From an uncultured Bacilli bacterium (GTDB lineage: Bacteria; Bacillota_I; Bacilli_A; RFN20; CAG-826): a DNA stretch of 64,000 nt. Location of the stretch: contig CALVLC010000047.1 of NCBI GenBank assembly GCA_944336335.1, positions 775 to 64,774 on the forward strand, given 5' to 3'. The notes under the pieces are model-generated. The model saw nothing but the letters and a program-made list of their open reading frames with translations. It made no database searches and was not told where the DNA came from. Position numbers and translations under genes: made by a program. Positions 8,458 through 24,943 of the stretch are shown piece after piece. The stretch's first letter is position 1. Every line of letters begins with the position of its first letter.

Positions 8458-8484
8458 GAGGTGTCTATTGACACCTCTGATTTT
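8458..8484 (+). terminator. Hairpin (possible partial terminator) between the first island gene and the protease genes
   Basis: 8-bp GC-rich stem GAGGTGTC / GACACCTC (8458-8465 / 8470-8477) with a 4-nt loop, followed by TGATTTTATGTTT. The T tract is interrupted. Confidence 0.45.
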
Positions 8485-8522
8485 ATGTTTATAGTTTAAT
8501 AGGAAAGAAAGAGAGGCTAAGC

Positions 8523-10295
8523 ATGAAAAAGAAATTATTCCTTTTATTAGCTGTTCCGTTTCTTAGTTTAGTGTCTTGTGGAGATAGCTCGCAAGATATA
8601 AACGGTAATGGAAATAATTCATACTTAACTGATAAAGATAGTGGAACAGCCACTATTAAAATCGTAAAAGATGATTCTGCGACAGCAACAGAGCGTTATA
8701 TTTCACCAAAAAATGTTGAACTAAGCATGACTTTTAATGCACTTAGTGGAACTTTATCAAATAATGAAAACGTTTGCCCTTCAGTTGGAGACGTTAATTT
8801 ACTTGTTATTCCAGTTCATTTACCAGGTTCAACTTATAACACTGAAAGTATTAAAGAAGATATCGAAACTGCATTTTTTGGAAAAGATAGTGAAGATAAT
8901 GGCTTCATGTCTTTATCAGAATATTACTATGAATCAAGTTTTGGCAAATTAAACTTTAGTGGTTTTGTCACTGATTGGTTTGATGTTAGTGCTAACACCA
9001 ATATTAAATCATTATCCGATATTACCATGAGAACTGATGGAACAATTATTAGTGAAATTTTAAGAAAAGCAGTTGATTGGGCTTTTTCTAATGAAGAATA
9101 TGGTCTTAATAGAAAAGATTATGACAAAAACCAAGACGGAAGCATTGATGGCGTTTGGTTAGTTTATGATCATTTAAATTATTTCAATCAAGCAGCTATT
9201 GATCCAGAAAGTAATGATGAAGATTTAAATGAAGCTTTTTGGAATTTTACAAGTTGGGACTGGTATGGACCAGAACCAAATTTAGAAGTTCCAACAACTA
9301 GTGGGTTTTCATGGTCAAGTTTTGATCAACTTTATTCAGCATATGCTGATTATGATCAAGTACCTGTTCCAAATACTCAAAACCAATTTTACGATGTCCC
9401 TGATTTTTCAGATTTAGATTCTATTAAACTTGATTCACATACTTATATCCATGAAACTGGTCACTTATTAGGACTTGATGATTTATATACAAGTGATGGC
9501 AGAAGACCAACTGGTTCATCTACAATGATGGATCAAAATGTTGGTGACTTTGATCCATACTCAAAAATGGCACTTGGTTGGATTACTCCTTATGTTGTTT
9601 ATGGAAGTAGCGAAATTTTAATTCCATATAACACATATAATGACCATAGTGTTATCGTAATTCCTTCAAATTGGGAAGAAATCTCTGCAGAAATTGAAGA
9701 TTTATCTGAAAGTGAAAAGCAAAACTACGTTTATGAATTCAACCCATTTAGTGAATATATGTTAATCGATTTATATTCACCACTTGGAGTTAATTCTATG
9801 GACACATATGGTAACGAAGATGGTAATTTAGTCCATGGCAGAGAAGCTTGCGTAGCTGGTACAGGAGTTAGAATTTATCACGTCGATTCAAGAATCTTTA
9901 AATGCACAGTTGTTAGTTCTGATTTAGGAACAACTTTAGATTGGGATGAAGAGAATCTTGAGTGGGATGGTGAAACTCTTAAAGATAATGAAGCTATCAT
10001 GATGGCAATTACTAATGAAAGACTTGAACATGCTAATTTCGGACTTGATGAAGAATTTGATTATTTTGAAAGATGCCGTCTTCTTGAAGCTCATGGCACC
10101 AATACATTTGATATAAAAGATTTAACTGATCAATATGCAACAAACGAAACACTTTGGGGAGTTGATGACGAACCTTTTGATATTTATACATTTGGTTATC
10201 AATTCTTTAATGGTGTTTACACATATAATGATGGTAAAGAACTACCTTTTAAAGTTAGTGTTAAAACTTTACAGGAGGTAAAATACAATGCTTAA
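8523..10295 (+). CDS. M6-family (immune inhibitor A-like) zinc metalloprotease lipoprotein
   Basis: Lipobox LSLVSC|G. Zinc site HETGHLLGLDDLY (HExxH at 9450-9464) resembles the M6 HE(F/Y)GHxLGLPDEY motif. The upstream layout is M6-domain-like (VNLLVIPVHLPG..., YYYESSFGKLNFSGFVTDWF, DKNQDGSIDGVWLVYD). Confidence 0.8.
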   Translation: MKKKLFLLLAVPFLSLVSCGDSSQDINGNGNNSYLTDKDSGTATIKIVKDDSATATERYISPKNVELSMTFNALSGTLSNNENVCPSVGDVNLLVIPVHLPGSTYNTESIKEDIETAFFGKDSEDNGFMSLSEYYYESSFGKLNFSGFVTDWFDVSANTNIKSLSDITMRTDGTIISEILRKAVDWAFSNEEYGLNRKDYDKNQDGSIDGVWLVYDHLNYFNQAAIDPESNDEDLNEAFWNFTSWDWYGPEPNLEVPTTSGFSWSSFDQLYSAYADYDQVPVPNTQNQFYDVPDFSDLDSIKLDSHTYIHETGHLLGLDDLYTSDGRRPTGSSTMMDQNVGDFDPYSKMALGWITPYVVYGSSEILIPYNTYNDHSVIVIPSNWEEISAEIEDLSESEKQNYVYEFNPFSEYMLIDLYSPLGVNSMDTYGNEDGNLVHGREACVAGTGVRIYHVDSRIFKCTVVSSDLGTTLDWDEENLEWDGETLKDNEAIMMAITNERLEHANFGLDEEFDYFERCRLLEAHGTNTFDIKDLTDQYATNETLWGVDDEPFDIYTFGYQFFNGVYTYNDGKELPFKVSVKTLQEVKYNA

Positions 10296-11853
10296 GAAAA
10301 AAATACTCCCTATTTTAACTTTTTCAGTTTTAGGAATGCTTTCGATTGCTTCTTGTGAAGGTGAAAGTTTACCAGATATTCCTTTTGAGACGCCTTATAC
10401 TCAAACAGCCAACATTACAATTTCAAATAGTGGAATTTCTGAAGATAAAGTTTTTGCACCTGAAGAAGTTGAAATGACTTATGATATGGCTAGTTTTGAA
10501 AAAGATGCGTATTACAACACACAAGTGATGCCTTCAACCGGTGAAGTCAATGTTTTAGTTTTACCAATTCTTGTTCCTGAATATGATGAAATTGATATTA
10601 ATAATGATAAAGTTGACGATAAAGCAAAAGTAAAAGAAGACATTGAAGCAATTTTCTTTGGTGATCCAGATGAAGATGAAAGATTAAAATTCGGCAGCGT
10701 AGCTTCTTTTTATGAAGAATCAAGTTGTGGTAAACTTCATCTTTCTGGTACTGTAGCGGATTGGTTTAATGTTGAAGAAGAACTTGGTTATACTAAAGCA
10801 ACTGAAATTACTAGCGATGTTACAACCGAAATCATGGAAGCTGCACTTGCGGATTATAGAAAAAGTCAAAGCGATAATTTAAAATCTTTTGATAGCGACG
10901 AAGATGGTTTTATTGATGGAGTTTGGTTAGTTTATAGTGCACCCGATTATACAAATGGTGGTCCAAATCTATCAGATAACAATTTCTGGGCGTATACTTC
11001 TTGGGCTAATCAAGATAGTGATGGTGATAAAGAAGAACCTGTCGCAAATGTTTATGGTTGGGCAAGTTATGATTTTATGTATGAAGGATATGAAACAAGT
11101 TCCCTTGATTCTCATACATTTATACATGAAACTGGTCACTTTTTAGGATTGCAAGATTATTATTCAACTGATGGAAATCCATCTTATTCACCCCTTGGTA
11201 AAGTTGATATGATGGATAATAATATCATTGATCATAACTCATTTACTAAAATGCTTTTAGGCTGGACTAAACCATATCTTGTTTACGGAAACGCAGAAAT
11301 TAATTTAAAATCAATGCAAAACGAGAACGCTTGTATTGTTTTACAAAATGATGATGCCGAAGTTACAAATAAATTTAATCCATTTAGCGAATATATTTTG
11401 ATTGAATTTTATACAAATGAAGGGTTAAACGAAATCGATAGTTTTCAAAAATATGAAAACGTTTTAGCTCCTCAAAGTAAAGGCGTTAGAATTTATCACA
11501 TTGATAAGAGACTTTTCTCAGTTACTCTTGATAAAATAAATAATACTCAATCAATTGGTTTATATGATGGCACAAATTTAAACGATGGTTTAGTTGTACC
11601 AATTACAAATTCACGTGATTTAGATGTCTATAATCGTGTCTTTGGTTTAGATATTGACTACAATTTATTCGATGAAATTCGTTTAATTGAAGAAAATGGT
11701 AAAGATACATTCTCAAATGGTGGTTATCAAAGAATAAGTAGTTATTTTAGAGATGGTGATTCATTTTCGATGGATAGTCACGGTGCATTTTTTAGTGACA
11801 ACGCCTTAAACGATGGAAGTGAATTTTCATATACCGTAGGAGTTAAATTATGA
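10288..11853 (+). CDS. M6-family metalloprotease lipoprotein, tandem paralogue
   Basis: Lipobox LSIASC|E. HETGHFLGLQDYY (HExxH at 11125-11139). Collinear motifs match the upstream gene (VNVLVLPILVPE, FYEESSCGKLHLSGTVADWF, DSDEDGFIDGVWLVYS). The start overlaps the upstream stop by 8 nt. Confidence 0.8.
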   Translation: MLKKKILPILTFSVLGMLSIASCEGESLPDIPFETPYTQTANITISNSGISEDKVFAPEEVEMTYDMASFEKDAYYNTQVMPSTGEVNVLVLPILVPEYDEIDINNDKVDDKAKVKEDIEAIFFGDPDEDERLKFGSVASFYEESSCGKLHLSGTVADWFNVEEELGYTKATEITSDVTTEIMEAALADYRKSQSDNLKSFDSDEDGFIDGVWLVYSAPDYTNGGPNLSDNNFWAYTSWANQDSDGDKEEPVANVYGWASYDFMYEGYETSSLDSHTFIHETGHFLGLQDYYSTDGNPSYSPLGKVDMMDNNIIDHNSFTKMLLGWTKPYLVYGNAEINLKSMQNENACIVLQNDDAEVTNKFNPFSEYILIEFYTNEGLNEIDSFQKYENVLAPQSKGVRIYHIDKRLFSVTLDKINNTQSIGLYDGTNLNDGLVVPITNSRDLDVYNRVFGLDIDYNLFDEIRLIEENGKDTFSNGGYQRISSYFRDGDSFSMDSHGAFFSDNALNDGSEFSYTVGVKL

Positions 11854-13541
11854 GACGTAATAGTTTAATTTTAATTTCAGCTTCTTTGCTTTTGACTTTA
11901 GCTTCTTGCGGAGGAGAGGTAATTCCAGATGTCTCAGGAGATTTAGATTCACCAAGTTATGATGGTGGACTTGCTGGAGATGAAGCTAATGATATTTTCG
12001 ATGCAGAAAACGATAAAAATATTGAAGTTTTGCTTGAAAATGCCTTAGAAATAACCAAATATACTTATGAAGTAGATGTTAACGTAAATGGCATAACTGA
12101 AACCTATACTCAATATTACACTCCAAATGCTTGGTATACAGAAGGCGGAACTGACTCTGATTTTGGATACGCTCAAACAAATAAAGAAAAATATTTATTT
12201 AAGTATTATTTAAATGAAGAGGCTACTGAAGTTTACCCATCTATTTATGAATATAGTGGTTATTATAATAATGAAATAACAACAGGATTATATAGTCCAT
12301 TAACTATTGCTAATATTGGTCTTTTAAAGGGGACATTAGATACTTTAAGACAAGAAGGTTACCAATATCTTGGAGGAAATCGTTATGTTATTTTAGATAG
12401 TGCAACGATGTCGGTTTTCCAATTTATGTCTTCTTATGGATCATCGCTTTCTAATTACATTTCATCTTGTTATGTCCAAATTATTGATTTAGAAAGTTGT
12501 ATCTTTGAAACAACTTTAGATCTTGGAAGCTTTGGTGAAATTAAAGGAAGATTTACTCCTCAAGAAACAACTAAAATTGATTTTGTTAATGACGCTGTAA
12601 TTAACGATGGTCTCCAAGGAGTAAGGGAATTTTCTGAAGTTAGTGAAGTTTCAAATTTATTGAAAGAAAATAACTTTACCCTTCAAGGAATTAGATTGAT
12701 TGAACCAAGTGGCCTTACAAGTTCTTCAGAAACAACAATTTATTGTACAAACGATTACTTCCTTTATGATTATAAGAATAATGAGAAATATACTGATTTT
12801 GGTTTTGCTTTTATAAAGGCAAATACTGAGGTTCCGATTTATTATAAAAATGCTGAAACTGGTGAACTTAGTTCGACTCCTATAATGACAAAGTATGCTT
12901 ACGATGGCTGCTTTGAATTTGAAAGAGGAAATGATGGCATAATTCGCTTTGTTGAATTCATTGGGCCAATTGAAAATGAATCAACAAAATATGTTTATGT
13001 CGAAGAACTTCCAGCAACCGGAGAAAGTGGATATTTATATATTTGTGAAGATAAATTAACTGGTGTTCTAAATGTTTATGAATATGTTTTAGTTAATGGA
13101 AAATATCAATGGAACGTCTATTCCGAATGGTACGATTCTGTTGGTGATTTTTATGTTTATAACTATGGAGCGACTTTTTATCTAAGCAGCACAGCTTTTA
13201 CGGCTTTAGCCTCTTCTTTATTTGAACAACAAACTCCAGGAACGGCTAATCATAAATATTTTTCTTCTAATTTAGACATTATTTCAGCAATAACTAATGG
13301 CTTATTTGGTTGGGGTTTCCAGGAAACAACAACTTGGTTAGATTATATTACTAATTCTTATTTAGAAATTAATTACGGTACAAATAATGAAATTTCTTCA
13401 TTTGATTTAGGCGTTGGCGTTATGGCTTCAGTTGGCGGAGGAATGAGCGGTGAACAAAAAATTAGTTACAATTTCTCTAACTTTGGAACAACTACAGTTG
13501 AAGCAGTAGATAACATGTTATCTGAACTTTACGGAGAGTAA
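11850..13541 (+). CDS. Lipoprotein of unknown function (paralogue family member)
   Basis: Lipobox LTLASC|G and an ATGA start/stop overlap with the upstream gene. It shares the module YYTPNAWYTEGG...GYAQTNKEKYLFKY with the 13543 product and with the two decayed copies. Confidence 0.8.
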   Translation: MRRNSLILISASLLLTLASCGGEVIPDVSGDLDSPSYDGGLAGDEANDIFDAENDKNIEVLLENALEITKYTYEVDVNVNGITETYTQYYTPNAWYTEGGTDSDFGYAQTNKEKYLFKYYLNEEATEVYPSIYEYSGYYNNEITTGLYSPLTIANIGLLKGTLDTLRQEGYQYLGGNRYVILDSATMSVFQFMSSYGSSLSNYISSCYVQIIDLESCIFETTLDLGSFGEIKGRFTPQETTKIDFVNDAVINDGLQGVREFSEVSEVSNLLKENNFTLQGIRLIEPSGLTSSSETTIYCTNDYFLYDYKNNEKYTDFGFAFIKANTEVPIYYKNAETGELSSTPIMTKYAYDGCFEFERGNDGIIRFVEFIGPIENESTKYVYVEELPATGESGYLYICEDKLTGVLNVYEYVLVNGKYQWNVYSEWYDSVGDFYVYNYGATFYLSSTAFTALASSLFEQQTPGTANHKYFSSNLDIISAITNGLFGWGFQETTTWLDYITNSYLEINYGTNNEISSFDLGVGVMASVGGGMSGEQKISYNFSNFGTTTVEAVDNMLSELYGE

Positions 13542-13542
13542 T

Positions 13543-15564
13543 ATGAAGAAAAATATCATAGTTTTGCTTAGTTTTTCATTTATTTTAACAGGTTTAGCAT
13601 CATGTGGAAGTGATGTAATTATCGATGATAATCCTAACAATAACGTAACAACTCTTCCTGATCCAAAAGGTGCGCTTCAAGAGTTTTTTGCTTCTTTAAG
13701 AGGCAATAACTTTACAATTTCTTATACAGATAATTATGTAAATACTGGTTTAAGTAGAAATCAAACTACTTATTACACAGATTATTCTTTACAAAGTGAA
13801 GGTGACTTAGGATTTAATGGTTATGCTAAAAATGAAGAAGGTGTTTTTAGCTATAATTTAGTTGATGGCGAAGTTGTAAGTGGTATTCCAGTTATTGATT
13901 ATGATCATGGAACGATGGTTTATGATATCTATGATTATCGAGATGGAATGAATGATTTTGATTACACTTTTCTTCCTGAAGATTATGAGGTTGGTGCGAA
14001 ATTCACCTATGTTTTTAAGGAAAACACTAGAAATGATGAATTATTAATCTCAGTTTTCTTAAGAAAGAATTATAATCCAGATGCTTTACCAAAAAGTTTA
14101 ACAATGCAACTTGCAGCTAACACTTTACGTGTTGACAGCATTGGTCTTGAATATGAAGGTGGAGCTTATGACTCAACAAGTGTTTCAGTTTATAACGTTG
14201 GAACAACAGAAAATAGTGAAATTAAACAATATTTAGCTGATGGGAAGACATCAAAAGATCCATTAGATAAGAGATTTTTTGAACTTATTGCTCCATATTT
14301 AGAAAGCAATAACTATAAAACAACTCTTGATGCCCGTGGACTTAGAAGTGATAACGGTGGTTATGAAACTTTCTATGAAAATCAATATTTCTTAGAAGAC
14401 GCCATAATTTATGATACTGTGAGTAAAGGAACAGTAACTGGCGATTTACAAGCACCAGGCGTTGTTGTTAATTTTAAACTCGATGACATGAATGATGATG
14501 AACTTGAAATTACAGGTACACCATCAAATCAAGGCGATGGATTCTTTACAACATTATATGGTGAATATTTAACTTATATTCTTTCTTCAATGGGCTTTTC
14601 TAACTTTATTGGATATGTTGATGAAGAACATGAAGATTCTTATTACATTACTGATAGTCAAGCTCAAAGTATCTTGTCTTATATTTGTAAATTTGAAATT
14701 GATAGCACAACAAGAGCTTTAAATAGCTTAAGATTAGAGGTTGATGATTGGGAAACACATGCTTTTACCTTATATTTTGATGTTTATAATCCAACAACAT
14801 CTTTACAAAAAGGCATTTATAAAGCATCTTTTTCAGATGTTAACAAAGTTTCTTCAAAAGCAGTTGAACGTTACTTAAATATTGGCGAACGTGCTTTAAA
14901 TCAAGATAAATCTGAGCTTGAAAGTGTTTTAAACAAGTATAGAGAACATAATTATTCAATGGATGTTTTAACCGATGTTGGTCTTGCAAAAGTTTATTAC
15001 ACTAAAGATTATTACTTTATTCAAACTTATGGAGTTCCAAGTTCTAATGAAGGTTTCATTAAACAAGGTAATTCAATTTACGAATTCAATCTTTCATACA
15101 ATAGTTTAACCGGCAACATAAGTAGAATTAATATTTTAACAAATAAAGATTATGCACAAGCTGGAATGACTCTTCCAGGATGTGGCGAATATAATGGTCA
15201 TGGCGATACCGACTTATTCTATTTCAGTGCTTTTGATGATGTTATTTATGATTACGATAATTATACTCAAGGTTCAATTATGGGTCATAATTATTGGAAA
15301 AATAACGGGAAAACAAGTTCTGATATGATTTTTTCTCAAGCTGTTTTAAAATATTTTTATCCTAATGATACTAGTGGCGCCTTACCTCAAGGAGCTGGAT
15401 TTATGGTATCAGATAGTGATGACCCATACGATACAAGAGCAAGTTTATACCTAGCTTACTCAAGTAAAGATGGCTCTCAATACGGTGGTCAATATACAAC
15501 ATTTTATGATATTGGCGGAACAAGTTTTGAATACTTAGACAACTATATAAAAGAAAATAGTTAA
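13543..15564 (+). CDS. Lipoprotein of unknown function (paralogue family member)
   Basis: Lipobox TGLASC|G, starting 1 nt after the upstream stop. It carries the module YYTDYSLQSEGDLGFNGYAKNEEGVFSYNLVDGEVVSG. Confidence 0.8.
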   Translation: MKKNIIVLLSFSFILTGLASCGSDVIIDDNPNNNVTTLPDPKGALQEFFASLRGNNFTISYTDNYVNTGLSRNQTTYYTDYSLQSEGDLGFNGYAKNEEGVFSYNLVDGEVVSGIPVIDYDHGTMVYDIYDYRDGMNDFDYTFLPEDYEVGAKFTYVFKENTRNDELLISVFLRKNYNPDALPKSLTMQLAANTLRVDSIGLEYEGGAYDSTSVSVYNVGTTENSEIKQYLADGKTSKDPLDKRFFELIAPYLESNNYKTTLDARGLRSDNGGYETFYENQYFLEDAIIYDTVSKGTVTGDLQAPGVVVNFKLDDMNDDELEITGTPSNQGDGFFTTLYGEYLTYILSSMGFSNFIGYVDEEHEDSYYITDSQAQSILSYICKFEIDSTTRALNSLRLEVDDWETHAFTLYFDVYNPTTSLQKGIYKASFSDVNKVSSKAVERYLNIGERALNQDKSELESVLNKYREHNYSMDVLTDVGLAKVYYTKDYYFIQTYGVPSSNEGFIKQGNSIYEFNLSYNSLTGNISRINILTNKDYAQAGMTLPGCGEYNGHGDTDLFYFSAFDDVIYDYDNYTQGSIMGHNYWKNNGKTSSDMIFSQAVLKYFYPNDTSGALPQGAGFMVSDSDDPYDTRASLYLAYSSKDGSQYGGQYTTFYDIGGTSFEYLDNYIKENS

Positions 15565-15581
15565 GATTTGTGAGGTTTTTT

Positions 15582-18455
15582 ATGAAAAAACATTATTTAG
15601 CATTAACTCTCCTTGCTAGTACATTATTAATTGGGACAACCTTAACTTCTTGTGGTAGTGAAACACCTGAACCAGATACAACTGGTCCAACAAGCTTAGT
15701 TATCGGTGGTCCACTTAGTGTTAAAGTTGGTGAGAAAATTACTTTATCAGCTGACCTTGTCGGTAGTGAAGATGATGCTGTTAACTGGGAAAGTTTAGAT
15801 ACAACAATAGCAACTGTTGATGCTAGTGGCGTTGTCACTGGCTTAGAAGTTGGAAGAGTAAAAATTAAAGCAACTTCTAAAAATTTCCCTTCTTTTTCAG
15901 CAGAATATGAAATTAGTGTAACTGCTGAATATGCTCGTGGAATTTCAATTGTAGTTGAAGAAAATGAAGATATAACTTTTGAAGATGGAGTTTATAACAT
16001 CCCAGGTGGTGTAACTTTTAGAGTTAACTATAAATTAGATAGCACTACAGCAACTAAACCAGATTCAATTGCTTATTCTTTTGCTTATGCGAATGGAGAT
16101 CAAGCAACAAATTCCGATTGTGTTATTGAAAATCAAGCTGATGGATCTGCTCTCGTTACTTTCTATAAAACTTTTACAGGTGGCGTAATTACAGTCACTG
16201 CAAGTTATAAAGCTAGTATTGATGCAGCAATTAGAAATGCAATTAGTGTAAATTCATATGATAAGAATGAAGCTAATGTTACAAAATTAAATGAAATTAT
16301 TTCTTCTTTAACTGAAAAAGAAATTGGTTCATTAACTAGTGCAAAACATGTTTATAAAGAAGGCGATTCAATTACTGAAACAAGTGAATTTAGAGTTTAT
16401 AAAGATGCAACTTATAAAACTTTAACCCGTGTTGAAGGCGATCAAAGCAAAACAACAAAATCTTATTCAACTTTAGACGAAGAAACATCTTCTTTCTATT
16501 TATTTAGTTATGATGAAGATAAAAAGATTGAAGAAATGTATGCTAATGAAGAAGTCCTTTCTGCTAATTTAGAAAATTATCAAAACTTTGTTGCTCAACC
16601 TAACTTTATGGTCGATAGTGTTCCAACTTATGGTTTTACAACTTTAATTAATACTATTGCAACTGGTGGAACATATCGTAGTGAATATGCTTTTGGCGAT
16701 TTCTTGGCAAGAGGAAATGCAGTTTATACATTTACTGATACAAGTGTAAAAGTTGAAACAACTTATTTAGATGATGTTGATTATTTAAATCATGCACTTT
16801 TAGAACTTGATTATAATTCAGAATTTGAATTAACGAATTTCCATTATCTTTATGAACAAGGAAAAGATGAAGAATCTTTAACTAAAATTTTTGAAGAAAC
16901 TGGTAGTGATTTTGTTTATGGAGAAAAAGGAAACGACATCACTAAAGAGATCGATATTCAAGAATATTACATTCGTGATTTTGAAATTGAATATGTTGAT
17001 GGTTATGAAGACATTGCTAGTGATGGCACTGATGGAGCTCGTTACGATATTGAAAGTGAAACAGTTGATGAAAATGGAGTGAAAACTTTTACATTAACTT
17101 ACGATCGTACCTTACCTCTTAGAATTACTGATTTCGATCCATCAACAGGTTCAACTTTAATTGATATTGCAAGCGTAACGGTATCAAGTGAAGAGTCGGG
17201 TTCAAGAGATGTTGGTATTTATCGAGATGGTATTACCGTAATCAGTGCTCCTAAAAAAGAAGATGGAACATTCTTTAAAGTTGAAGAAACAGTTCAGATT
17301 GAAACAAGAGGTGGAGCAGTTAAAACCTGTAAAATTAACTGGAAAGAACCAGTTTTAAATGGAATTAATTTTGATTGCCCACTTGATCAAGAAGTCAATA
17401 CGTCTCATAAATTTAATGACATTAGAATTTATAAAGAAACAGAGTATTTCTGGTTAAATGCTGATCCAGATGATTCAATTTATGATTTCGATATGAAGAT
17501 TTTAAGTGGTGATGCTGATGGAATTGAACTTGTTTCACATGATGGAGATACTGATAAAGAAGTGCCTGAAGGAGCTTATACAATTAGAGCAAACAAAGTT
17601 GGAACATATACTTCCCATTTTTATGTTATTGGTCATGAAGATGTTCATACAGAAACATTTACATTAAATGTTCTTGAAGGAATTAGTGCTGAAACATATA
17701 AAACTAATTTAATTGGTAAAACATATGAATATAACAACGGCTCTGCAGACTTCAGTTTAAATTTTGCAAGTGAAACAAATATGGTATTAACTATGCCAAA
17801 ATACGTTGAACGTGCAGAAGGTTCTGAAGATGTTGGTGATGGCGAACAAGTTTCAGTAAATATTAAATATGAAATTGCTGATGGAAGAGTTACAGTTCTT
17901 ACTGATGGCGAAGATAAAGTTAATCAAATCTTCAATTCAAACGATTCATATTTAGAATCAATTTATGGCGGCGATCTTGAAATTAGTGAAGATTTCAAAA
18001 CAGTCGAACTTGAACTTAGAATGAGAAGCGATGCTAGAAACGATCCAACAAATTATAACTACAATGTCTATACATTCACACTTCCAAGTGATATGAGTTC
18101 ACTTGCTGGTAAGAGCTTTGCTTCTGGAAGTATCTTTGTTACTGGTCAAGCTATGAGTTCAGTAACATTAACATTTGAAGATGATAGCAAAGGTAACTTC
18201 AAACTTGTTAATAATGTTACTAAGTTTGAAATCGCTTCATTTACTTTTGACTATGTTGTTAATACAAATGATCCAATATTTGGAACAGCTGTTGAATTAA
18301 GCAATGTAACTTTAGTTAACGCTGGTGTTTCAGGAACAACTTTTGTTTCAGCGTCAATGTATGACGCGAATAACATCGACTTAAGATTTAAAATTCCATG
18401 TCAATACGGTTCTTTCGATTATACATTCAGGGTCGATCTTAGAAATCCTTTATAA
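15582..18455 (+). CDS. Big_2 (bacterial Ig-like group 2) domain surface lipoprotein
   Basis: I prefer the ATG at 15582 over the track GTG at 15570, because GAGG lies 7 nt upstream. Lipobox TLTSC|G. The Big_2 signature is LSVKVGEKITLSADLVGSEDDAVNWESLDTTIATVDASGVVTGLEVGRVKIKATS. Confidence 0.8.
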   Translation: MKKHYLALTLLASTLLIGTTLTSCGSETPEPDTTGPTSLVIGGPLSVKVGEKITLSADLVGSEDDAVNWESLDTTIATVDASGVVTGLEVGRVKIKATSKNFPSFSAEYEISVTAEYARGISIVVEENEDITFEDGVYNIPGGVTFRVNYKLDSTTATKPDSIAYSFAYANGDQATNSDCVIENQADGSALVTFYKTFTGGVITVTASYKASIDAAIRNAISVNSYDKNEANVTKLNEIISSLTEKEIGSLTSAKHVYKEGDSITETSEFRVYKDATYKTLTRVEGDQSKTTKSYSTLDEETSSFYLFSYDEDKKIEEMYANEEVLSANLENYQNFVAQPNFMVDSVPTYGFTTLINTIATGGTYRSEYAFGDFLARGNAVYTFTDTSVKVETTYLDDVDYLNHALLELDYNSEFELTNFHYLYEQGKDEESLTKIFEETGSDFVYGEKGNDITKEIDIQEYYIRDFEIEYVDGYEDIASDGTDGARYDIESETVDENGVKTFTLTYDRTLPLRITDFDPSTGSTLIDIASVTVSSEESGSRDVGIYRDGITVISAPKKEDGTFFKVEETVQIETRGGAVKTCKINWKEPVLNGINFDCPLDQEVNTSHKFNDIRIYKETEYFWLNADPDDSIYDFDMKILSGDADGIELVSHDGDTDKEVPEGAYTIRANKVGTYTSHFYVIGHEDVHTETFTLNVLEGISAETYKTNLIGKTYEYNNGSADFSLNFASETNMVLTMPKYVERAEGSEDVGDGEQVSVNIKYEIADGRVTVLTDGEDKVNQIFNSNDSYLESIYGGDLEISEDFKTVELELRMRSDARNDPTNYNYNVYTFTLPSDMSSLAGKSFASGSIFVTGQAMSSVTLTFEDDSKGNFKLVNNVTKFEIASFTFDYVVNTNDPIFGTAVELSNVTLVNAGVSGTTFVSASMYDANNIDLRFKIPCQYGSFDYTFRVDLRNPL

Positions 18456-18484
18456 TAAGAAAAGTGTTGCATTAAAACAAAAAA

Positions 18485-18508
18485 GGCTGCAAATCTGCAG
18501 TCTTTTTT
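18485..18508. terminator. Bidirectional terminator between convergent operons
   Basis: Stem GGCTGCA / TGCAGTC (one G.U pair) with a 4-nt loop. It is flanked by an A run upstream (18475-18484) and a T run downstream (18503-18508). Confidence 0.6.
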
Positions 18509-18526
18509 GCTAATTGTTGAATTAAA

Positions 18527-20446
18527 TTATCTCTTTCTATGTCTAAATTTAACGGAAATAATTATTATTATAGCAATAGCAACGAAAGCTGTTGAACCAA
18601 TAACTGACCAAAGAATTATTCCGTTCGAATTGTTTGGTTGTTCTAATTTTGGGATTTTTCTAGTTTGAATTACTTCGTGGCAAACAGAACAAACATAGCT
18701 TTCTAATCCTTCTTCATCGTAGGTAGGTTCTTTTGTAACTTGCCATGAACCACGATGTTCAATAAGTGGGATGGTTTCAGTTTCTTTTTCTCCACAAACT
18801 GAGCAAACTCTTTCTTTTATACCAGTTTCTGTACAAGTAGCTTCTTTTGTTACAGTCCATTCGCCATAACTGTGCTCAGTAGTTTTTTCAATTGGTCTAG
18901 TTTCAATAACTGTTCCACAATGATCACAAATTAAGCTTTCAACACCTTCATCTTTACATGTAGGTTCTTTTGTAACTTGCCATGAACCATGATGTTCAAT
19001 AAGTGGGATGGTTTCAGTTTCTTTTTCTCCACAAACTGAACAAACTCTTTCTTTTATACCAGTTTCTGTACAAGTGGCTTCTTCTGTTACAGTCCATTCG
19101 CCATAACTGTGAGATAAATTAGCAGCTTTTATAGCGTGACTTTGATTAATATCTTTCAACGGGTTGGTAGTTATATCTACTATATCTGAACCTATGATGT
19201 TAAGTTTAGTATCGAAATTTTCACAAGGTTTCGTAAATTTAAAATGAATAGTGAGAAGATTGCCGATTACACTGTCGTTGTTGAATTTTAATAACGACAA
19301 ATGTAAGTTTCCTGCTCCTGCCTTTGACTCGTTCAAATAACATATATCAAAAATTTCGCTTAGTGAACTAAATTCATGTGAAGAATAAGTTAAAAACTTG
19401 GCATCAAAATTTATATCAAAATCGCCAGCTGCTAGTTTTGAATTTTCTGGAATTTGTAGCGTAACGTCACATGTTTTATTTGTTTCATCTATCTTAATAG
19501 AAGAAGTGACGGAATCATCGCTTCCAATTAAATTGTCAAATTCAAAATTTATTAACGTACTAACAATTTCAGAAGAAAATTGATTATTATCTAAATCAAA
19601 TAAAGATGAAGGAGTAAGGGTAATAAAGCAAGAAGAAGTTAAATTTTCTTTTGCTTTCAAATTTATTGTTATTAAATCGTTAAAATTATTATTTTTGTCA
19701 TTAATAAAACTAAATGAAACTGAACCAGGATTACCTGTATTGATATCAAAAATGATACCATCTTGGTTTAAATAATTTCCTTTTTCATAAGACTCAAAGT
19801 CTAATAAATCCTTATCATATGAAAGCAACAATGTGCCGGCGTTCAATTTATTCAAGTCATAACTATTTATTTTGATTGATAAAATTTCATTTTGCTTAAG
19901 TGTAGTTTTATTTAAATCAAAATAAAATAATATTTTGTTAAGTTCTTGATTTTCGCTAATAAAAAAGGATAAATAATCTCCGTTAATGTTAAATACATTT
20001 AAACTTGAATCATAAGCTTCGACAACTTTTATATCAAAAAATGATTGAGTTAATGTCGTATCTGATTTAACAGTGAATGAAATAGAGATTAATCCTTGGC
20101 TTTGATCCAATTCTTCATTAAATAAATAAGAAGAATAGATTGTGTCAGCACCAATTTTAATATCTGACATAGCCTTGGAAGAATTATCACTAGCATTATC
20201 AATTTTAATTGCTTGACTGTCGTAATGAATTTCGAAAGTTATGGCAGAGAGGGCAAAAGCATTTTCCAAATCTATATAAAAAACTACTGATTCACCTTTT
20301 TTATAAGAATTTTTTAAATTATTCGTGAAATAAGCCGTTTGGCTTTCAGTTTGTTTGTTTAAAGAAGCATTAAAATTACTCCCACTAAGTGGGGTAGTGG
20401 GAGTAATGAGTAATGTAGCAACAAGAGATAGATAATTAAGCGACAT
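18527..20446 (-). CDS. Membrane-anchored scaffold protein with three cohesin-like modules, four Cys-rich repeats and a C-terminal TM anchor
   Basis: Three ~125-aa modules (about 19129-20314) carry cohesin-like signatures: FALSAITFEIHYDSQAIKIDN, LNAGTLLLSYDKDLLDFESYEKG...GSVSFSFIN, and LAAGDFDINFDAKFLTYSS...GNLHLSLLKF. Four units follow of the form W-x-V-T-x-E-x-T-C-x3-G-x5-C-x2-CG. The C-terminus is ILWSVIGSTAFVAIAIIIIISV followed by KFRHRKR. The ATG overlaps the S8 gene stop by 11 nt. Confidence 0.7.
   Translation of the reverse strand: MSLNYLSLVATLLITPTTPLSGSNFNASLNKQTESQTAYFTNNLKNSYKKGESVVFYIDLENAFALSAITFEIHYDSQAIKIDNASDNSSKAMSDIKIGADTIYSSYLFNEELDQSQGLISISFTVKSDTTLTQSFFDIKVVEAYDSSLNVFNINGDYLSFFISENQELNKILFYFDLNKTTLKQNEILSIKINSYDLNKLNAGTLLLSYDKDLLDFESYEKGNYLNQDGIIFDINTGNPGSVSFSFINDKNNNFNDLITINLKAKENLTSSCFITLTPSSLFDLDNNQFSSEIVSTLINFEFDNLIGSDDSVTSSIKIDETNKTCDVTLQIPENSKLAAGDFDINFDAKFLTYSSHEFSSLSEIFDICYLNESKAGAGNLHLSLLKFNNDSVIGNLLTIHFKFTKPCENFDTKLNIIGSDIVDITTNPLKDINQSHAIKAANLSHSYGEWTVTEEATCTETGIKERVCSVCGEKETETIPLIEHHGSWQVTKEPTCKDEGVESLICDHCGTVIETRPIEKTTEHSYGEWTVTKEATCTETGIKERVCSVCGEKETETIPLIEHRGSWQVTKEPTYDEEGLESYVCSVCHEVIQTRKIPKLEQPNNSNGIILWSVIGSTAFVAIAIIIIISVKFRHRKR
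18723..19111. repeat. Two near-identical 152-bp direct repeats (18723-18874 and 18960-19111), period 237 bp
   Basis: The copies align base for base with only a handful of mismatches and encode duplicated 79-aa Cys-rich units (HSYGEWTVT(E/K)EATCTETGIKERVCSVCGEKETETIPLIEH...). Confidence 0.85.
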
Positions 20447-23400
20447 TTTCTAAACTTGTAATATTACCATTAATATATTGGAGGACCATTAAGACTTCTT
20501 TAGCTTCAATGACACCACTATCATTTAAATCAGCTCTTTTAAATTCATCATCTTTTAGTAAAATAATTCCTTCAATTGCTTGTTTCATCATTAATGCATC
20601 AAGCATATTGACTGTACCATCAGCATTAACGTCTCCTTTTCCAGAAAGTAAGGAAGCATCTTTAATTGTGACAAAATATGGGGATTCTGCAGTACCTTTT
20701 CTAATAATATTGTTACCATCACTTACTTCGATGTAATAATCAATACCTTCAAGAGATAATTCGCCTCCATTAATCTTGCCACTGAATCTATCATTATTTT
20801 GACTCATAGTAATTGTTTTGTATTCTTCTGTTCCGTGTTTTCTATAGAATAATTTTGCATATTCTATACTTACATTGTCTGAAGCAGTAACTGATAAAAC
20901 AAGATTATTACCGACATACCCTTGATTAACAGGAGTGTGATAAACAGTAGGGCTAATCGTATCTTTTATTGTGCATTGAGTCTTACCAGATGGAACGGAT
21001 TCGGTCATATCAGTTAAAACGACAGTGAAAATATAGAAATAGGTTTTACCAGGTTCAGCATTATCATCTATAAAACTTGTTTCTTCTTTTGGTAAGACAG
21101 TGTTATTTAATCTAGTATAATTGCCGTTTTCTTCTTCTGAACGATAAACGTTATACCCCATTAAAGTTTCATAATCGTCTTGGAACCATTTAAGTTCAAC
21201 GCCTTCATCAGTTGGAGTTGCTTGTAAGCTCATGGCCAATGCAGCAGAAGTATCGATAGTAAATGTAAATGTTTCTGCATTATCAGCAAGAGTTAATGCA
21301 TGATTATCTTTAGCTCGACCGTTTGTGACAGAGAAATGTTGATAACCGCCTTCCATTCCGACATCAGCGATTTTATTCATTTTAAGCTTACCTAACCAAA
21401 GAGTGTCTGACAAATAAACACCATCGATTACGTAATCAGCATATGGTCTAACTGAACCAAATGTTACATCAAGTGGTAACGAAGTGTCCATTGGTCTATT
21501 AAATTCAATTCTAACCTGGAAATCTTCCTTACCAACTGTGTCAGTTTCAACGTCATCAAATGTTAATACAGTTATATCTGTAATAAATGGAGGAAGTTTT
21601 GAAATATCAAAATCTTCAGTGTTTTCGTTTTCAATAATGAAGTTACTTTCTGTATCGAAGAAATCTGAAATAATTAAATCGAACATAGTTTGTGGCATAC
21701 CATAAAGAAGTGTGTTTTTGATTTTATATATTTCTCCTTCCTCTCCGTTGCCACTTATTGAAATTAAGAATGTATTGTTTAACTGCGTGGTTTCGGAAAG
21801 AATCAAAGCATTACCATTGTAGTCTGATGTTTCTTTATTAATTTTAAAGGTGATATTGAATGGGTTCAAACTAATTGAATTTTTATTGATAAATAAGTTA
21901 TTTACGGAAGAATTTGCAAATTTTAGTCGCAAACCAGTCCAATAGTAAGGTCGTTCGCTTTCTGGACTAAATTCGAATATGTTTTCTTTAGCATCAATAG
22001 TAGAAAAAATAACGGTCGCTTTTAACAAAACTGTGGATGACTCAAGTTTTTTAATAGCAAAAGTTGAATCTGTGGTATATAAAACATCGACAGTTTTCCC
22101 GTTTTTAATGTAAACCATGTTATTATCAGCAGCTAAAGTGCTATAAAAAGTTATATTGCTATTCTTAATTGATATATTTGAATGATCTAAATCTGAGGTA
22201 GCATAATCGTTTTCAAATTGAGTTACACAGTTATATAAATCAGCGTATTCAATATTAATTTGACCATTGCCAACAGTTTTCATTTGCCACATGTAGTCAA
22301 CATACCAATCTGCGACGTGAAAATTGACGTAGTCGTCTTCACTACCTTTAATTTCAATATTTCCCCAAGCGGTTATACTAGGAGATGAAATAAGTTGATC
22401 GTAATAATTTGAATTAACATCATTATAAACTTGAATATCAACGCCAGGTTCGATTGTTAAAGTGGCGCCTTCCATGACTCTCATTTGATTGAGAAGTAAA
22501 TATGAATGATCTTTTGTTAAAGTTGTGTCTTTGTCGATTACAGTTGGAAGTAAAATTCTATTTGAAACGCTAATTGTCACAGATAAATCATTAAAATTAA
22601 ATGGTGTTCCGCTATTATCAGTGCAAGAAACTCTTAAATTAAATGTAATTGAATATTCATCTGGACAATCTTCAGAAATTACGAATTCAAAATACTGTTC
22701 TGTTCCAATAACTGAATTGCTTGCTTCATCATAAATTAAGCCAGTATCTTTATTAGAATATGTGCCAATCGTTTCAAAATTAATTGTATCTTTTGTAATT
22801 TTTACATATGGATCTGTTAATAGACCTTCATCATCTCTATTAACGTCGATTTTCGCAATAGTATTACTTGCAGCTCCACCAATATTTGCAAGGTTTAAGC
22901 CCATTCTTATGGTCTCGCCTGCGTTGATAGTGGAATTACCATTATTATTTGAAGAAAATTCTCCATCATCAAAAGTGTAGTAATCATAAACACCAATTTT
23001 AGGTTTTGAAGCTTTTGCTAATGCAGCATAAGCATCAACACATTTTGCATAGTTATCTACTCTGTATGGATGATAAGTATTAACAAATAAATCTGAGGTA
23101 TTAACAATTTGAGAGAATAAATACTTTGTAGGATACATCTCTTTGTCTGGGTGCATAGATCTAATTAAGGCAGCAACCGCAGAAACAACTGGAGTTGCCA
23201 TTGATGTACCATTAAAACTTGTGTATCTATTATTAGGGTAGGTTGAATAAACATTTTCACCTGGAGCAAAAACTTCGTATTCAACACTATTATTTGGGAA
23301 AACATCAAAGTTTGTGAACCAGCTTTCTGAATATTCATTGCTTGTACTCATAACGCCACAAACAAATGAATAAGAAGCAGGATATTCTTTAACTACATCA

Positions 23401-24422
23401 TAACCTGGATATCTAAATTGATTTTGAGCTTGATCATTTCCAGCGGCTGCGACTAAAAAAGAAGTAGTATAAGCCGCTTCAAGAGCATCTTGAACTTCAA
23501 GTGACATAGTTGAACCACCGATTGACATTGAAATAATGTCAGCTCCGTTCATATAAGCATAGTTTATAGCTTCTGCGATATTTGAATTGTTAAATGTACC
23601 GGACGAATTACCACATTTAACAGGCATAATTTTACAATTATATGCGATACCGGTTGTGCCAAAATTATTTTTGGAAGCACCGATAATACCAGCTACGTGG
23701 GTGCCGTGTCCGTTATCATCCATAGGATCGTTATTATCGCCAACACAGTTCCATCCCATTGTATCATCGATATAACCATTGCCATCGTTATCGATTCCGT
23801 CACCCGGAATTTCTTGAGTGTTTGTCCAAATATTATCTTTTAAGTCAGGGTGATTATAATCAACACCGGTATCTAAAACAGCAACAACTACCGACGAATT
23901 GCCACCTGCAGTAGAACCATGTGTTTCCATATATTCGTAGGCTTCATCAAGATTAATAACATCTTCTAAACCTAACTTAACCGAATCATCTTTTTGAACT
24001 GGAGATTGATCACTTTCTAAAGCATCGGTTTCAAAAATATAATCAAAATCTACAACCTCAAAAAAACCTGATTTTCTAAAATCAGAGATTAAATCACTAG
24101 CTTTGTAATTATCTTCTAAATAAATAGTGGTCCAGTCACTATTTTTGTGATTTTCAATTGATTTAATTTTAAGAGCTTTGCTGATTGCTCCATCTTCTTT
24201 AATTAAAGTTGTGTCTTTGAGTTTAACTAAAAGATGATCTTCGTTAAATTTAACGTCATTCAATTTATTTAAATCAACTGACATATCCATCGGTTGAGTT
24301 AATAAATCTGAATTTAAAGTTTCGGCTTCTTTTTTAGTTAGACTTTCTGGTGCAGTATATGTTTGAAATGCCGAAAATACTAGCATCAAGAAAGGAAATA
24401 TTGCTAAATATTTAGTTCTCAT
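20436..24422 (-). CDS. Secreted S8 subtilisin-like serine protease with CARDB/beta-helix-like middle region, FN3 domain and C-terminal dockerin
   Basis: Signal peptide MRTKYLAIFPFLMLVFSAFQ. Catalytic triad motifs VAVLDTGVDYNHPDL (Asp), GHGTHVAGIIGA (His) and NGTSMATPVVSAVAALI (Ser). FN3-like stretch GVELKWFQDDYETLMGYNVYRSEE...GKTYFYIFTVV. Dockerin at about 20460-20642 with duplicated Ca-binding loops DVNADGTVNMLD and DLNDSGVIEAKE. Confidence 0.9.
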   Translation of the reverse strand: MRTKYLAIFPFLMLVFSAFQTYTAPESLTKKEAETLNSDLLTQPMDMSVDLNKLNDVKFNEDHLLVKLKDTTLIKEDGAISKALKIKSIENHKNSDWTTIYLEDNYKASDLISDFRKSGFFEVVDFDYIFETDALESDQSPVQKDDSVKLGLEDVINLDEAYEYMETHGSTAGGNSSVVVAVLDTGVDYNHPDLKDNIWTNTQEIPGDGIDNDGNGYIDDTMGWNCVGDNNDPMDDNGHGTHVAGIIGASKNNFGTTGIAYNCKIMPVKCGNSSGTFNNSNIAEAINYAYMNGADIISMSIGGSTMSLEVQDALEAAYTTSFLVAAAGNDQAQNQFRYPGYDVVKEYPASYSFVCGVMSTSNEYSESWFTNFDVFPNNSVEYEVFAPGENVYSTYPNNRYTSFNGTSMATPVVSAVAALIRSMHPDKEMYPTKYLFSQIVNTSDLFVNTYHPYRVDNYAKCVDAYAALAKASKPKIGVYDYYTFDDGEFSSNNNGNSTINAGETIRMGLNLANIGGAASNTIAKIDVNRDDEGLLTDPYVKITKDTINFETIGTYSNKDTGLIYDEASNSVIGTEQYFEFVISEDCPDEYSITFNLRVSCTDNSGTPFNFNDLSVTISVSNRILLPTVIDKDTTLTKDHSYLLLNQMRVMEGATLTIEPGVDIQVYNDVNSNYYDQLISSPSITAWGNIEIKGSEDDYVNFHVADWYVDYMWQMKTVGNGQINIEYADLYNCVTQFENDYATSDLDHSNISIKNSNITFYSTLAADNNMVYIKNGKTVDVLYTTDSTFAIKKLESSTVLLKATVIFSTIDAKENIFEFSPESERPYYWTGLRLKFANSSVNNLFINKNSISLNPFNITFKINKETSDYNGNALILSETTQLNNTFLISISGNGEEGEIYKIKNTLLYGMPQTMFDLIISDFFDTESNFIIENENTEDFDISKLPPFITDITVLTFDDVETDTVGKEDFQVRIEFNRPMDTSLPLDVTFGSVRPYADYVIDGVYLSDTLWLGKLKMNKIADVGMEGGYQHFSVTNGRAKDNHALTLADNAETFTFTIDTSAALAMSLQATPTDEGVELKWFQDDYETLMGYNVYRSEEENGNYTRLNNTVLPKEETSFIDDNAEPGKTYFYIFTVVLTDMTESVPSGKTQCTIKDTISPTVYHTPVNQGYVGNNLVLSVTASDNVSIEYAKLFYRKHGTEEYKTITMSQNNDRFSGKINGGELSLEGIDYYIEVSDGNNIIRKGTAESPYFVTIKDASLLSGKGDVNADGTVNMLDALMMKQAIEGIILLKDDEFKRADLNDSGVIEAKEVLMVLQYINGNITSLENVA

Positions 24423-24890
24423 CGTGAAGCGCCTCCTTGTACTTAATAATTTTAAACCTTTAAATAGTCAAGGTCTAATTTTTAGGACCGCGTTTAGAGA
24501 TATTGTCATATTTAAATTTTGCCTTTTTGTTGCTCTTTTATTTTTAAGAAAAAATTTTTTTGTATGAAAATACTATAATTTTTATATTTTTGTGTTAAAA
24601 AACCTGCAAAAACCTAATATTTTATTTAAAAACTGGGTATATATTACTTTTGTAATTTTCTAAAAATCTTTGCAAAATCCAAATAAAAAAATATTTTTTG
24701 GCATACTACATTTTTGTCAGTTTAGTAAATTTTAAGATTTTATAAATGGAATAATCTATAGAATTCAAAGTTGAAATTAGACAACTTTTACAATCATTAA
24801 TCTTAATAAATAGTAATGTAAATTAAGTTTCTAGAAATTAATTTCCATTACAACTTACAGTCTATAATTCCTTTTTTGAATTGGAAATTT

Positions 24891-24920
24891 CAAACAAAAA
24901 CCACCTCGATTTCGAGGTGG
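24891..24920 (-). terminator. Rho-independent terminator of the purine permease gene
   Basis: On the minus strand: CCACCTCG-AAAT-CGAGGTGG followed by TTTTTGTTTG. Confidence 0.7.
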
Positions 24921-24943
24921 TTAAGCAATCAAAACTTTTAAAG

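Follow-up and report, generated by a model that had tools for sequence, protein, structure and literature searches.

To our knowledge, cohesin-dockerin pairs outside cellulosomes are numerous, and few of them have known partners. Among the closest described systems, the double dockerin dDoc_0689 of a C. (Acetivibrio) thermocellum S8 protease binds the cell-bound scaffoldin ScaD (8X39/8X3A), according to Chen et al. 2024 as summarised in PMC12484212, and the cell-attached cohesins ScaE of R. flavefaciens and Sca2 of R. bromii capture peptidase dockerins for surface display (PMC5301203, PMC4611034). In Cellulosilyticum lentocellum, ClcC and ClcD are encoded by adjacent single-cohesin and dockerin genes, and their heterodimer was shown experimentally (PMC13487519). 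The C-terminal domains CTD2 and CTD4 of the T. ramosa IgA protease (9QA6) contain predicted Cys/His zinc sites linking beta-sheets, and belong to an uncharacterised 'periscope' fold which spaces the surface enzyme from the cell (PMC12415215). In the current work, two adjacent genes were analysed which lie in a 64-kb stretch of contig CALVLC010000047.1 from an uncultured Bacilli bacterium (this whole stretch is referred to as the window), and which encode an S8 protease with a C-terminal dockerin and a predicted membrane-anchored protein with three cohesin-like modules. All parts of this arrangement are known, as is the principle of tethering a dockerin-bearing peptidase via a cell-attached cohesin. 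It is likely, in our assessment, that the two genes constitute a self-contained bicistronic cassette for an obligate two-subunit cell-surface protease, the subunits of which are joined by cohesin-dockerin binding.

The dDoc_0689 system shares with this locus a subtilisin-family protease, a type I-like dockerin (being the best solved match to the dockerin described here) and a proposed surface tethering via a cohesin, whereas it possesses two tandem dockerins instead of one and a cellulosome context of which nothing is visible in the window. ScaD is a general cellulosomal anchoring scaffoldin, encoded elsewhere and attached to the cell wall by means of S-layer homology (SLH) repeats, while the cohesins described here are part of a dedicated protein encoded by the same operon and anchored by a transmembrane (TM) helix. 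Lactococcal PrtP, a very large surface S8 protease for nutrition, which is wall-anchored through an LPXTG motif and which needs PrtM, an adjacently encoded, membrane-attached chaperone of the peptidyl-prolyl isomerase type, offers a functional likeness only, there being no cohesin or dockerin in that system. ClcC and ClcD resemble the present pair in that cohesin and dockerin genes lie side by side in an organism without a large cellulosome; yet, according to the abstract of that report, they are cellulase-related and enhance cellulase activity, they have one cohesin and no fixed block of three modules, and no TM or zinc-stalk anchor is mentioned there, nor are they known as a widely conserved cassette. 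ScaE and Sca2 are likewise single-cohesin proteins, Sca2 carrying a sortase signal and ScaE being described as sortase-anchored (PMC4611034), and in contrast to the present case they serve many dockerin proteins and their genes are not located beside that of a peptidase. Finally, CTD2 and CTD4 share a Cys/His repeat (HxYGEW..ATCTExG..R.C..CG...H) with the stalk of the tri-cohesin protein; there, however, the repeat is found within a protease polypeptide bearing its own C-terminal cell anchor (PMC12415215), whereas here it is located in the non-catalytic partner, between cohesins and TM helix.

Results

The two genes and their transcriptional layout

Gene 1 (20436..24422) encodes a 1328-aa secreted S8 (subtilisin-family) protease with a C-terminal dockerin, and gene 2 (18527..20446) specifies a 639-aa membrane-anchored tri-cohesin protein, both genes (and thus all of their domains given below) being located on the minus strand. 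The two open reading frames (ORFs) overlap by 11 nt (20436-20446), with the start of gene 2 lying inside the end of gene 1; the coordinates of both ORFs and their overlap, which had been reported in a first-pass annotation made by a model from the letters of the window, were reproduced. The upstream limit of the two-gene unit is a terminator-like hairpin behind the upstream permease gene (24899..24922, minus strand; 10-bp stem with 6 GC pairs, followed by a T-run), and the promoter should be located in the 476-nt spacer at 24423-24898. At the opposite end, a bidirectional terminator hairpin (18478..18509; a 14-bp stem on the plus strand, and an inner hairpin with a T-run at 18500-18487 on the minus strand) is positioned between the cassette and a convergent lipoprotein gene. 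Between gene 1 and gene 2, a hairpin scan revealed no terminator-like hairpin of a quality comparable to those flanking the pair. The terminators bracketing the two genes, the absence of one between them and the 11-nt overlap therefore point to a single bicistronic unit.

Searches with the Pfam profiles Peptidase_S8, Dockerin_1 and Cohesin, corresponding to the three domain types named in the first-pass annotation, were all positive and exceeded the curated cut-offs. With Pfam E-values of 1e-11 to 1e-54, chance occurrence of the S8, dockerin and cohesin motifs was ruled out.

Conservation of the pair across relatives

The pairing of the two genes was found to be strict in 18/18 contexts, nine of nine when approached from the cohesin side and nine of nine from the protease side, at 23-66% identity and at a guanine-plus-cytosine (GC) content of 28-51%, which strongly supports the functional coupling that had been proposed for them. 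The spacing between the cassette genes ranges from -14 to +18 nt, and their neighbours vary by locus. From the cohesin side, a gene with S8 and Dockerin_1 domains (1273-1345 aa where complete), or its 3' end, is located directly upstream on the same strand in all nine readable contigs. This upstream gene is complete next to P0001 (contig L003), P0172 (L004, a Ruminococcus sp. metagenome-assembled genome (MAG)), P0304 (L006), P0156 (L096), P0165 (L097/L098), P0197 (L099), which is a 3882-aa leucine-rich repeat (LRR) protein, and P0263 (L100), and the window protease and its full-length orthologue on L004 are 40% identical over 1283 aa. For P0027 (L001) and P0295 (L101) the contig begins inside the upstream gene, of which the remaining fragment represents a dockerin-bearing protease end. 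Upstream of the gene for P0027, the fragment that codes for the dockerin (L001 1-110, and also L002) has an in-frame TAA at 13 nt from the contig end, which could be an assembly-end artefact or the mark of a decaying protease gene.

From the protease side, an alignment covering the 390 conserved C-terminal residues was used to scan metagenomes, and 13 loci were obtained. In nine of these the match (41-66% identity) extends through the dockerin, and each of the nine has a tri-cohesin ORF immediately behind it, as recognised by a hidden Markov model (HMM) of the three-module block (E 2e-36 to 2e-174); at the four partial-match loci without the dockerin region no downstream tri-cohesin ORF was found.

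Among 11 cassettes, the mean pairwise identity amounts to 0.66 for the S8 catalytic domain, 0.61 for the dockerin, 0.58 for the last Ig-like domain and 0.57 for the FN3-like domain, as compared to 0.31-0.33 for each of the cohesin modules and 0.25 for the middle region of the protease. Judging from these alignments, the dockerin is conserved nearly like the catalytic domain and is under strong purifying selection. In a mirror-tree comparison (n=11), the distances between dockerins correlate with those between cohesin modules at r 0.85-0.90, as against 0.57 for the S8 domain, 0.71 for the Ig-like domain and 0.70 for the FN3-like domain. Module 3 exhibits the highest correlation (r = 0.90), which for 11 related sequences is a weak hint that cannot discriminate between the modules. 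This tracking of distances would fit co-evolution of dockerin and cohesins, though it is only a hint.

Domain architecture of the protease

From its sequence, the product of gene 1 is an active-looking S8 protease. A signal peptide, MRTKYLAIFPFLMLVFSAFQTYTA (24351..24422), lacking a lipobox cysteine, is followed by a propeptide-like region and then by the catalytic domain (aa 176-443; 23094..23897; Pfam Peptidase_S8 183.1 bits against a cut-off of 21.8, E 9.6e-54). All four catalytic motifs, i.e. DTGVD (Asp, aa 184-188), HGTHVAG (His, aa 239-245), AAAGND (oxyanion Asn) and GTSMATP (Ser, aa 405-411), are intact in the window protein and kept in 11/11 orthologues. The nearest solved relatives are secreted subtilases, the best match being deseasin MCP-01 (3vv3, E 3.3e-49).

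The central region (aa 446-938; 21609..23087) shows the lowest conservation within the protease (mean pairwise identity 0.25-0.44 among orthologues) and has no Pfam match in the window protein; a weak precomputed Beta_helix_4 match is available for the corresponding region of the L096 orthologue, and the region probably consists of a beta-sandwich followed by a beta-helix. Conserved Ig-like, FN3-like and Ig-like domains (aa 939-1250; 20673..21608) then lead into the dockerin. Over this region the columns of the orthologue alignment are on average 72% identical and include the motif YHTPVNQGY; the regional identities amount to 0.45-0.58, and the last Ig-like domain bears a weak resemblance to that of PPAD.

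The protease terminates in a type I-like dockerin (aa 1262-1318; 20469..20639), which covers the entire Pfam Dockerin_1 profile (positions 1-57 of 57) with 44.5 bits (cut-off 22.9) and an E-value of 1.8e-11. Its calcium-binding loops 1, DVNADGTVNMLD (20598-20633), and 2, DLNDSGVIEAKE (20496-20531), are situated where the first-pass annotation had placed a duplicated Ca-binding segment of type I dockerin character, and that assignment is thereby upheld over the full length of the domain. A profile of the dockerin tail built from 10 orthologues matches 8x39/8x3a (the serine-protease double dockerin; E 3.3e-14), and also the type I dockerins 1ohz_B (8.4e-10) and 2ccl_B, as well as 4uyq_B and 2y3n_B. 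The consensus across cassettes is GDVDGxGxVTTKDALMLMQCxNGDLxLSDDxFKRADLNxDGxLSSxEALRILQYINGKxTTLEM. No second dockerin-type loop was detected in any frame of the 64-kb window.

Comparison of the protease with the NCBIfam and PADLOC collections returned generic matches to the catalytic domain only, far under the family cut-offs (for instance, 22 bits against a cut-off of 900 for NCBIfam IteS), and on this comparison the protease belongs to no curated subfamily. An anti-phage S8 system (IteS/IetS, PADLOC subtilase) was considered and rejected, as the catalytic domain alone matches ('subtilase' 86 bits, IetS 26.7 bits); the gene 2 product gave no match. A role as a cellulosome or amylosome component was also rejected, since neither protein contains a carbohydrate-binding module or a carbohydrate-active enzyme domain and the window encodes no other dockerin loop.

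Cohesin modules of the partner

The product of gene 2 is, as predicted from its sequence, a type I membrane protein whose ectodomain consists of three different cohesins atop a Cys/His stalk. Its N-terminus is an atypical signal-like segment, MSLNYLSLVATLLITPTTPLSGSNF (20372..20446), with a short hydrophobic core and no Lys or Arg. Residues 1-33 were modelled by AlphaFold2 (AF2) with a predicted local distance difference test (pLDDT) score of < 50. The N-termini of the closest relatives (L083, P0157, L089) are likewise uncharged, while canonical MKK... signal peptides are found in more distant ones.

The whole partner scores 47 bits against Pfam Cohesin (PF00963; cut-off 24.1, E 3.9e-12) in three stretches. 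When the three cohesin-like modules announced by the first-pass annotation are scanned alone, only module 2 (aa 171-302; 19541..19936) exceeds the cut-off of 24.1 with 33.2 bits, module 1 (aa ~36-165; 19952..20341) and module 3 (aa 313-441; 19124..19510) remaining under it at 21.3 and 17.1 bits, respectively. The latter module bears a family-wide motif, LxAGDF...F(D/N). The assignment of modules 1 and 3 is backed by a comparison of module profiles (~155 family members) with hhalign, which returned probabilities of 98.3-98.9% (E 2.5e-14 to 1.7e-17), i.e. 98.3% for modules 1 and 2, 98.7% for modules 1 and 3, and 98.9% (E 1.7e-17) for modules 2 and 3. It is further backed by AF2, which models modules 1 and 3 as beta-sandwiches at pLDDT ~90 and module 2 at > 90. 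An AF2 model of the tri-module block based on an 18-sequence alignment (pLDDT 91.2) displays three all-beta domains, and its low predicted template-modelling score (pTM) of 0.46 fits flexible joints between the domains.

Foldseek searches against the PDB identified the type II cohesin dyad 3l8q as the top match for the full-length partner model. Single-cohesin matches, which the output does not assign to individual modules, include the C. perfringens cohesins 2vo8 (TM-score 0.78, root-mean-square deviation 3.0) and 2jh2 (TM-score 0.73-0.76), and also 2w1n, 4fl4 and 3kcp; generic multi-sandwich proteins (integrin legs, complement C3) are among the matches as well. The predicted fold is thus the cohesin-type beta-sandwich, or jelly-roll, that the first-pass annotation had anticipated, and profile-profile comparison together with structure prediction shows that modules 1 and 3 are cohesins too.

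Probable stalk and membrane anchor of the partner

The cohesins are followed by four Cys/His-rich units (aa 445-603; 18638..19114) with the pattern C-x9-10-C-x2-C ... H, unit 4 lacking the first Cys. A phmmer search relates these units to the C-terminal domains of 9qa6_A, the IgA protease from T. ramosa (whole-sequence E 2e-4, best domain 17 bits), and by this resemblance they probably form a zinc-stabilised stalk. AF2 models them as three-stranded (pLDDT 75-91), followed by a disordered linker and then by a TM helix at aa 619-634. A direct-repeat search detected a 228-nt repeat (18647-18874 and 18884-19111; 86% identity, spacing 237 nt), showing that the four units arose by doubling of a two-unit block (units 1+2 and 3+4); Tandem Repeats Finder reported nothing in the partner gene. 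The number of Cys units in relatives ranges from 0 to 38, which fits a spacer of variable length.

In the sequence, the TM helix IILWSVIGSTAFVAIAIIIIISV occupies aa 610-632 (18551-18619) and is followed by a basic cytoplasmic tail, KFRHRKR (aa 633-639), the two together covering 18530..18619. The Cys-rich units, TM helix and tail are all located at the positions given in the first-pass annotation. No SLH domain (Pfam) and no LPXTG motif were found at the C-terminus, which carries the TM helix and basic tail instead.

The tri-cohesin family

When the cohesin region of the partner (aa 30-445) was used for an exhaustive HMMER search, 294 clusters (at 50% identity) were retrieved at E <= 1e-3, of which 163 remained at <= 1e-10 and 19 at <= 1e-30. 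The description of the locus as a 'minimal' system is for this reason misleading, as the family to which it belongs comprises at least 294 clusters. Nearly all listed matches consist of one co-linear stretch of ~390 aa starting at target residue ~35-50 (21-33% identity), indicating that the three modules form a fixed N-terminal unit behind the signal peptide. Mean local alignment scores amount to 184-196 for orthologous modules at the same position, compared to 40-51 for paralogous modules and 36-39 for shuffled controls. This implies that the triplication is ancient and that each position has kept its own identity. A display of several copies of the same protease, one of the options offered by the first-pass annotation for the presence of three cohesins, is therefore a poor fit: the modules are not equivalent, making trivalent display of the same protease unlikely, and by these comparisons they seem to be distinct components of a single fixed unit rather than equivalent sockets.

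What follows the block is variable. Among the best 150 relatives, 37 possess a TM helix with a basic tail, 44 dockerin loops and 73 Cys units (27 of these also with a TM helix); other C-termini consist of LRRs (as in the 3882-aa protein), belong to an annotated InlB B-repeat protein, or are missing altogether. A search of 5.8 billion proteins with the full partner as query was swamped by the Cys-rich repeat, and the only true full-length relatives obtained were P0001 and P0027. In the protein set, the cohesin region alone retrieved only P0001 (97-98% identical), and an 18-sequence profile retrieved only 3 proteins. Neither a scan of the genome collection with the protease nor a tblastn search of plasmids with its C-terminus returned a match.

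Anchoring of the proposed complex and nature of the host

A lipobox signal peptide is present in 10/11 full-length orthologous proteases compared, the lipobox cysteine being found in all ten (L004, L006, L085, L087, L088, L089, L096, L097, L099 and L100), whereas the window protease is without it. The protease copy on L003, which is 99.5% identical to that of the window, has the same cysteine-free signal peptide. These signal peptides suggest that the lipid anchor was lost, or never gained, in the lineage of the window. When partners are sorted by their C-terminus, TM-anchored (window, L083, L085, L087, L089-91) and dockerin-bearing forms (L004, L006) can be distinguished from those with neither (L084, L088). 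As the type of anchor varies, what is conserved appears to be the complex and not a particular anchor. The tethering of the protease through its TM-anchored partner, as put forward in the first-pass annotation, is a reasonable reading for the window, where there is no lipobox and the TM helix of the partner is the only tether visible in the sequences.

The additional proposal that such a TM anchor suits wall-less hosts does not hold as a specific association: TM-anchored partners also occur at 40-48% GC, and proteins combining one cohesin with the same stalk and TM anchor abound in Lachnospira. A Lachnospira-type contig (L102 7091-11981) encodes a very common 731-aa protein with one cohesin, ~10 Cys-rich units and a TM helix, which occurs in 67 contig-index blocks; its gene overlaps an upstream 306-aa cohesin gene, and a gene with Transglut_core and Dockerin_1 domains is located downstream. 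It represents a different family with the same local logic, i.e. a TM-anchored cohesin stalk encoded beside a dockerin-bearing, peptidase-like enzyme.

As regards the host, the ribosomal protein S4 encoded in the window shares 95% identity with that of 'uncultured Mollicutes bacterium UMGS238', 89-94% with those of uncultured Bacillales/Bacilli gut MAGs, and 80% with that of Candidatus Onthovivens (Bacilli). The window has a GC content of ~30%, is rich in lipoproteins (six lipobox ORFs at 5486-18455, and several more elsewhere) and encodes EzrA and a GlmM-like mutase; no diagnostic wall-synthesis gene was found within its 64 kb.

Neighbouring genes in the window

The six lipobox-protein genes (521-979 aa; 5486-18455, plus strand) are consecutive and convergent on the cassette, and four of the six products are without a Pfam match. 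They include a gene with an M6 (InhA-like) metallopeptidase domain (10288-11853) and one with a Big_2 domain (15570-18455), and together resemble a surface-protein island. At 28 kb from the S8 protease gene, a 432-aa serpin (52529-53827, plus strand; Pfam Serpin E 7.3e-36) is encoded; its signal peptide is that of a lipoprotein (…FSCLTSCGG), and it would be a membrane-tethered serine-protease inhibitor. As inhibition of subtilisin-like proteases has been reported for serpins from cellulosomal bacteria, it could shield the cell's own surface.

Elsewhere in the window, a 667-aa ATP-binding cassette (ABC) transporter ATPase (59789-61792, plus strand) has its nucleotide-binding domain in two pieces (~aa 7-132 and 348-500), between which an insert of ~200-240 aa without a family match is located. 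An IS21-type element (47557-49556, minus strand) consists of genes for an IstB-like ATPase (47557-48315) and an integrase/Mu-transposase-like IstA (48312-49556). At 38457-40998 (plus strand), a Sigma70_r2 gene resembling those for extracytoplasmic function (ECF) sigma factors overlaps the start of a 604-aa ORF without a family match; the two could be a sigma/anti-sigma pair.

Discussion

In the two-subunit protease that we regard as likely, the dockerin of the secreted enzyme would bind one particular cohesin of its partner in a calcium-dependent manner, generating a heterodimer at the membrane; the binding itself we infer from the conservation of the gene pair. The TM helix of the partner would be the sole anchor in this organism, because the window protease is without the lipobox found in most orthologues, and the zinc-type stalk would space the enzyme from the membrane. 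Across the family, the supplier of the anchor would vary, being the lipid of the protease, the TM helix of the partner or the two together, or else a second dockerin, carried by the partner, that could plug into a larger scaffold. The remaining two cohesins probably have separate roles, either structural or in binding other ligands, rather than contributing to a triple display of the protease. The physiological role would be extracellular proteolysis for nutrition, as suggested by the enzyme class and the lifestyle of a small-genome gut bacterium, this being the weakest step of the proposal.

Several observations weigh against this assembly. The signal sequence of the partner is atypical in the clade of the window, being without a basic residue and disordered in the AF2 model, and if it did not work the cohesins would remain in the cytoplasm. 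The dockerin (identity 0.61) is far more conserved than the cohesin modules (0.31-0.33), which is unexpected for simple co-evolution of a tight pair and leaves room for another, more conserved dockerin ligand. Most of the orthologous proteases are lipoproteins, and some of their partners are TM-anchored as well (L085, L087, L089), indicating that anchoring is not the general reason for the pairing. Finally, the portion of the genome covered is the 64-kb window, and other dockerins or cohesins may be encoded beyond it.

The redundancy of anchoring in much of the family is an argument for a complex that does form, but in which the partner is a functional subunit (for substrate recruitment, regulation or maturation) instead of an anchor, its other two cohesins capturing substrates or other proteins, or keeping the protease controlled. 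The differentiated and position-conserved modules, and the diverse C-termini of the partners (the 3882-aa LRR protein, the InlB B-repeat, dockerins, or nothing), would also agree with such a role; the missing lipobox of the window protease nonetheless makes anchoring at least part of the partner's role here, and there is no sign of a second ligand, no other dockerin being present in the 64-kb window. We regard this explanation as unlikely, while it overlaps the two-subunit assembly and differs from it solely in the role assigned to the partner. The two products might instead be co-expressed without binding each other, the dockerin engaging a ligand encoded elsewhere and the tri-cohesin protein displaying other dockerin proteins or acting as an adhesin. 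This would account for a highly conserved dockerin next to cohesins that are not, and has a precedent in cellulosome-bearing relatives, where peptidase dockerins bind general anchoring cohesins (ScaE, Sca2, ScaD); the 64 kb covered leaves space for such a ligand. We consider it very unlikely, however, since strict pairing in 18/18 contexts from divergent lineages with different neighbourhoods is hard to explain without a direct interaction, and since the overlapping or abutting genes fit translational coupling with matched dosage and dockerin divergence tracks that of the cohesin block.

It is scarcely credible, in view of the dockerin's match to 57/57 profile positions, its canonical calcium loops and its strong purifying selection, that dockerin and cohesin-like modules are mere structural EF-hand and beta-sandwich spacers in surface proteins that are neighbours by happenstance. 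Modules 1 and 3 do remain under the Pfam cut-off when scanned alone, Foldseek also matches generic stalks such as integrin legs and complement C3, and specialists have doubted the divergent 'putative cohesins' of R. flavefaciens (PMC5301203, PMC4081043); yet module 2 scores above the cohesin cut-off, hhalign gives > 98% probability for the homology of the other modules with it, and an obligate pairing is not to be expected of unrelated spacers.

The two-subunit protease may also be extended to a broader picture, which we put forward tentatively and with more doubt than confidence: an ancient, obligate, non-cellulosomal machine of Firmicutes in which three cohesins would have three jobs, one holding the protease and the others taking substrates or subunits, while the C-terminus of the partner sets the mounting (via a membrane helix, on a larger scaffold or on a giant LRR adhesin). 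If true, surface proteolytic complexes of this kind would form a class of their own, present even among Mollicutes-like Bacilli of the gut.

In the searchable literature and curated families, no description was found of the three-module cohesin block as a family, of its obligate pairing with one orthologous S8-dockerin protease or of its occurrence in Mollicutes-like Bacilli, and literature searches found none of any cohesin-dockerin system in such lineages. As the gene pair is encountered again, in unaltered form, in many distant gut Firmicutes, it probably encodes a surface protease in two parts that is widespread and had not been described. The family may include ScaJ, ScaM and others of R. 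flavefaciens FD-1, which were set apart as 'too divergent' putative cohesins (PMC5301203, PMC4081043), and Rumal_2328, the single putative cohesin of R. albus 7 (PMC4300822). Genomic adjacency names the cognate partner in 18/18 relatives examined, within a family of ~300 clusters at 50% identity, making the pair directly testable. If confirmed, it would provide a function for a large set of divergent 'putative cohesins' that have been set aside as doubtful, and the new, probably orthogonal, cohesin-dockerin specificities would be of use in protein engineering. Large surface proteases of gut commensals matter to the host, as is illustrated by the IgA proteases with the same stalk repeat, and knowing how this S8 protease is mounted would be a step towards identifying its substrates. 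If the proposed complex is real, the cohesin-dockerin principle would serve the degradation of protein and not of fibre, and would extend to an uncultured, lipoprotein-rich lineage of gut Bacilli that is labelled Mollicutes in public records.

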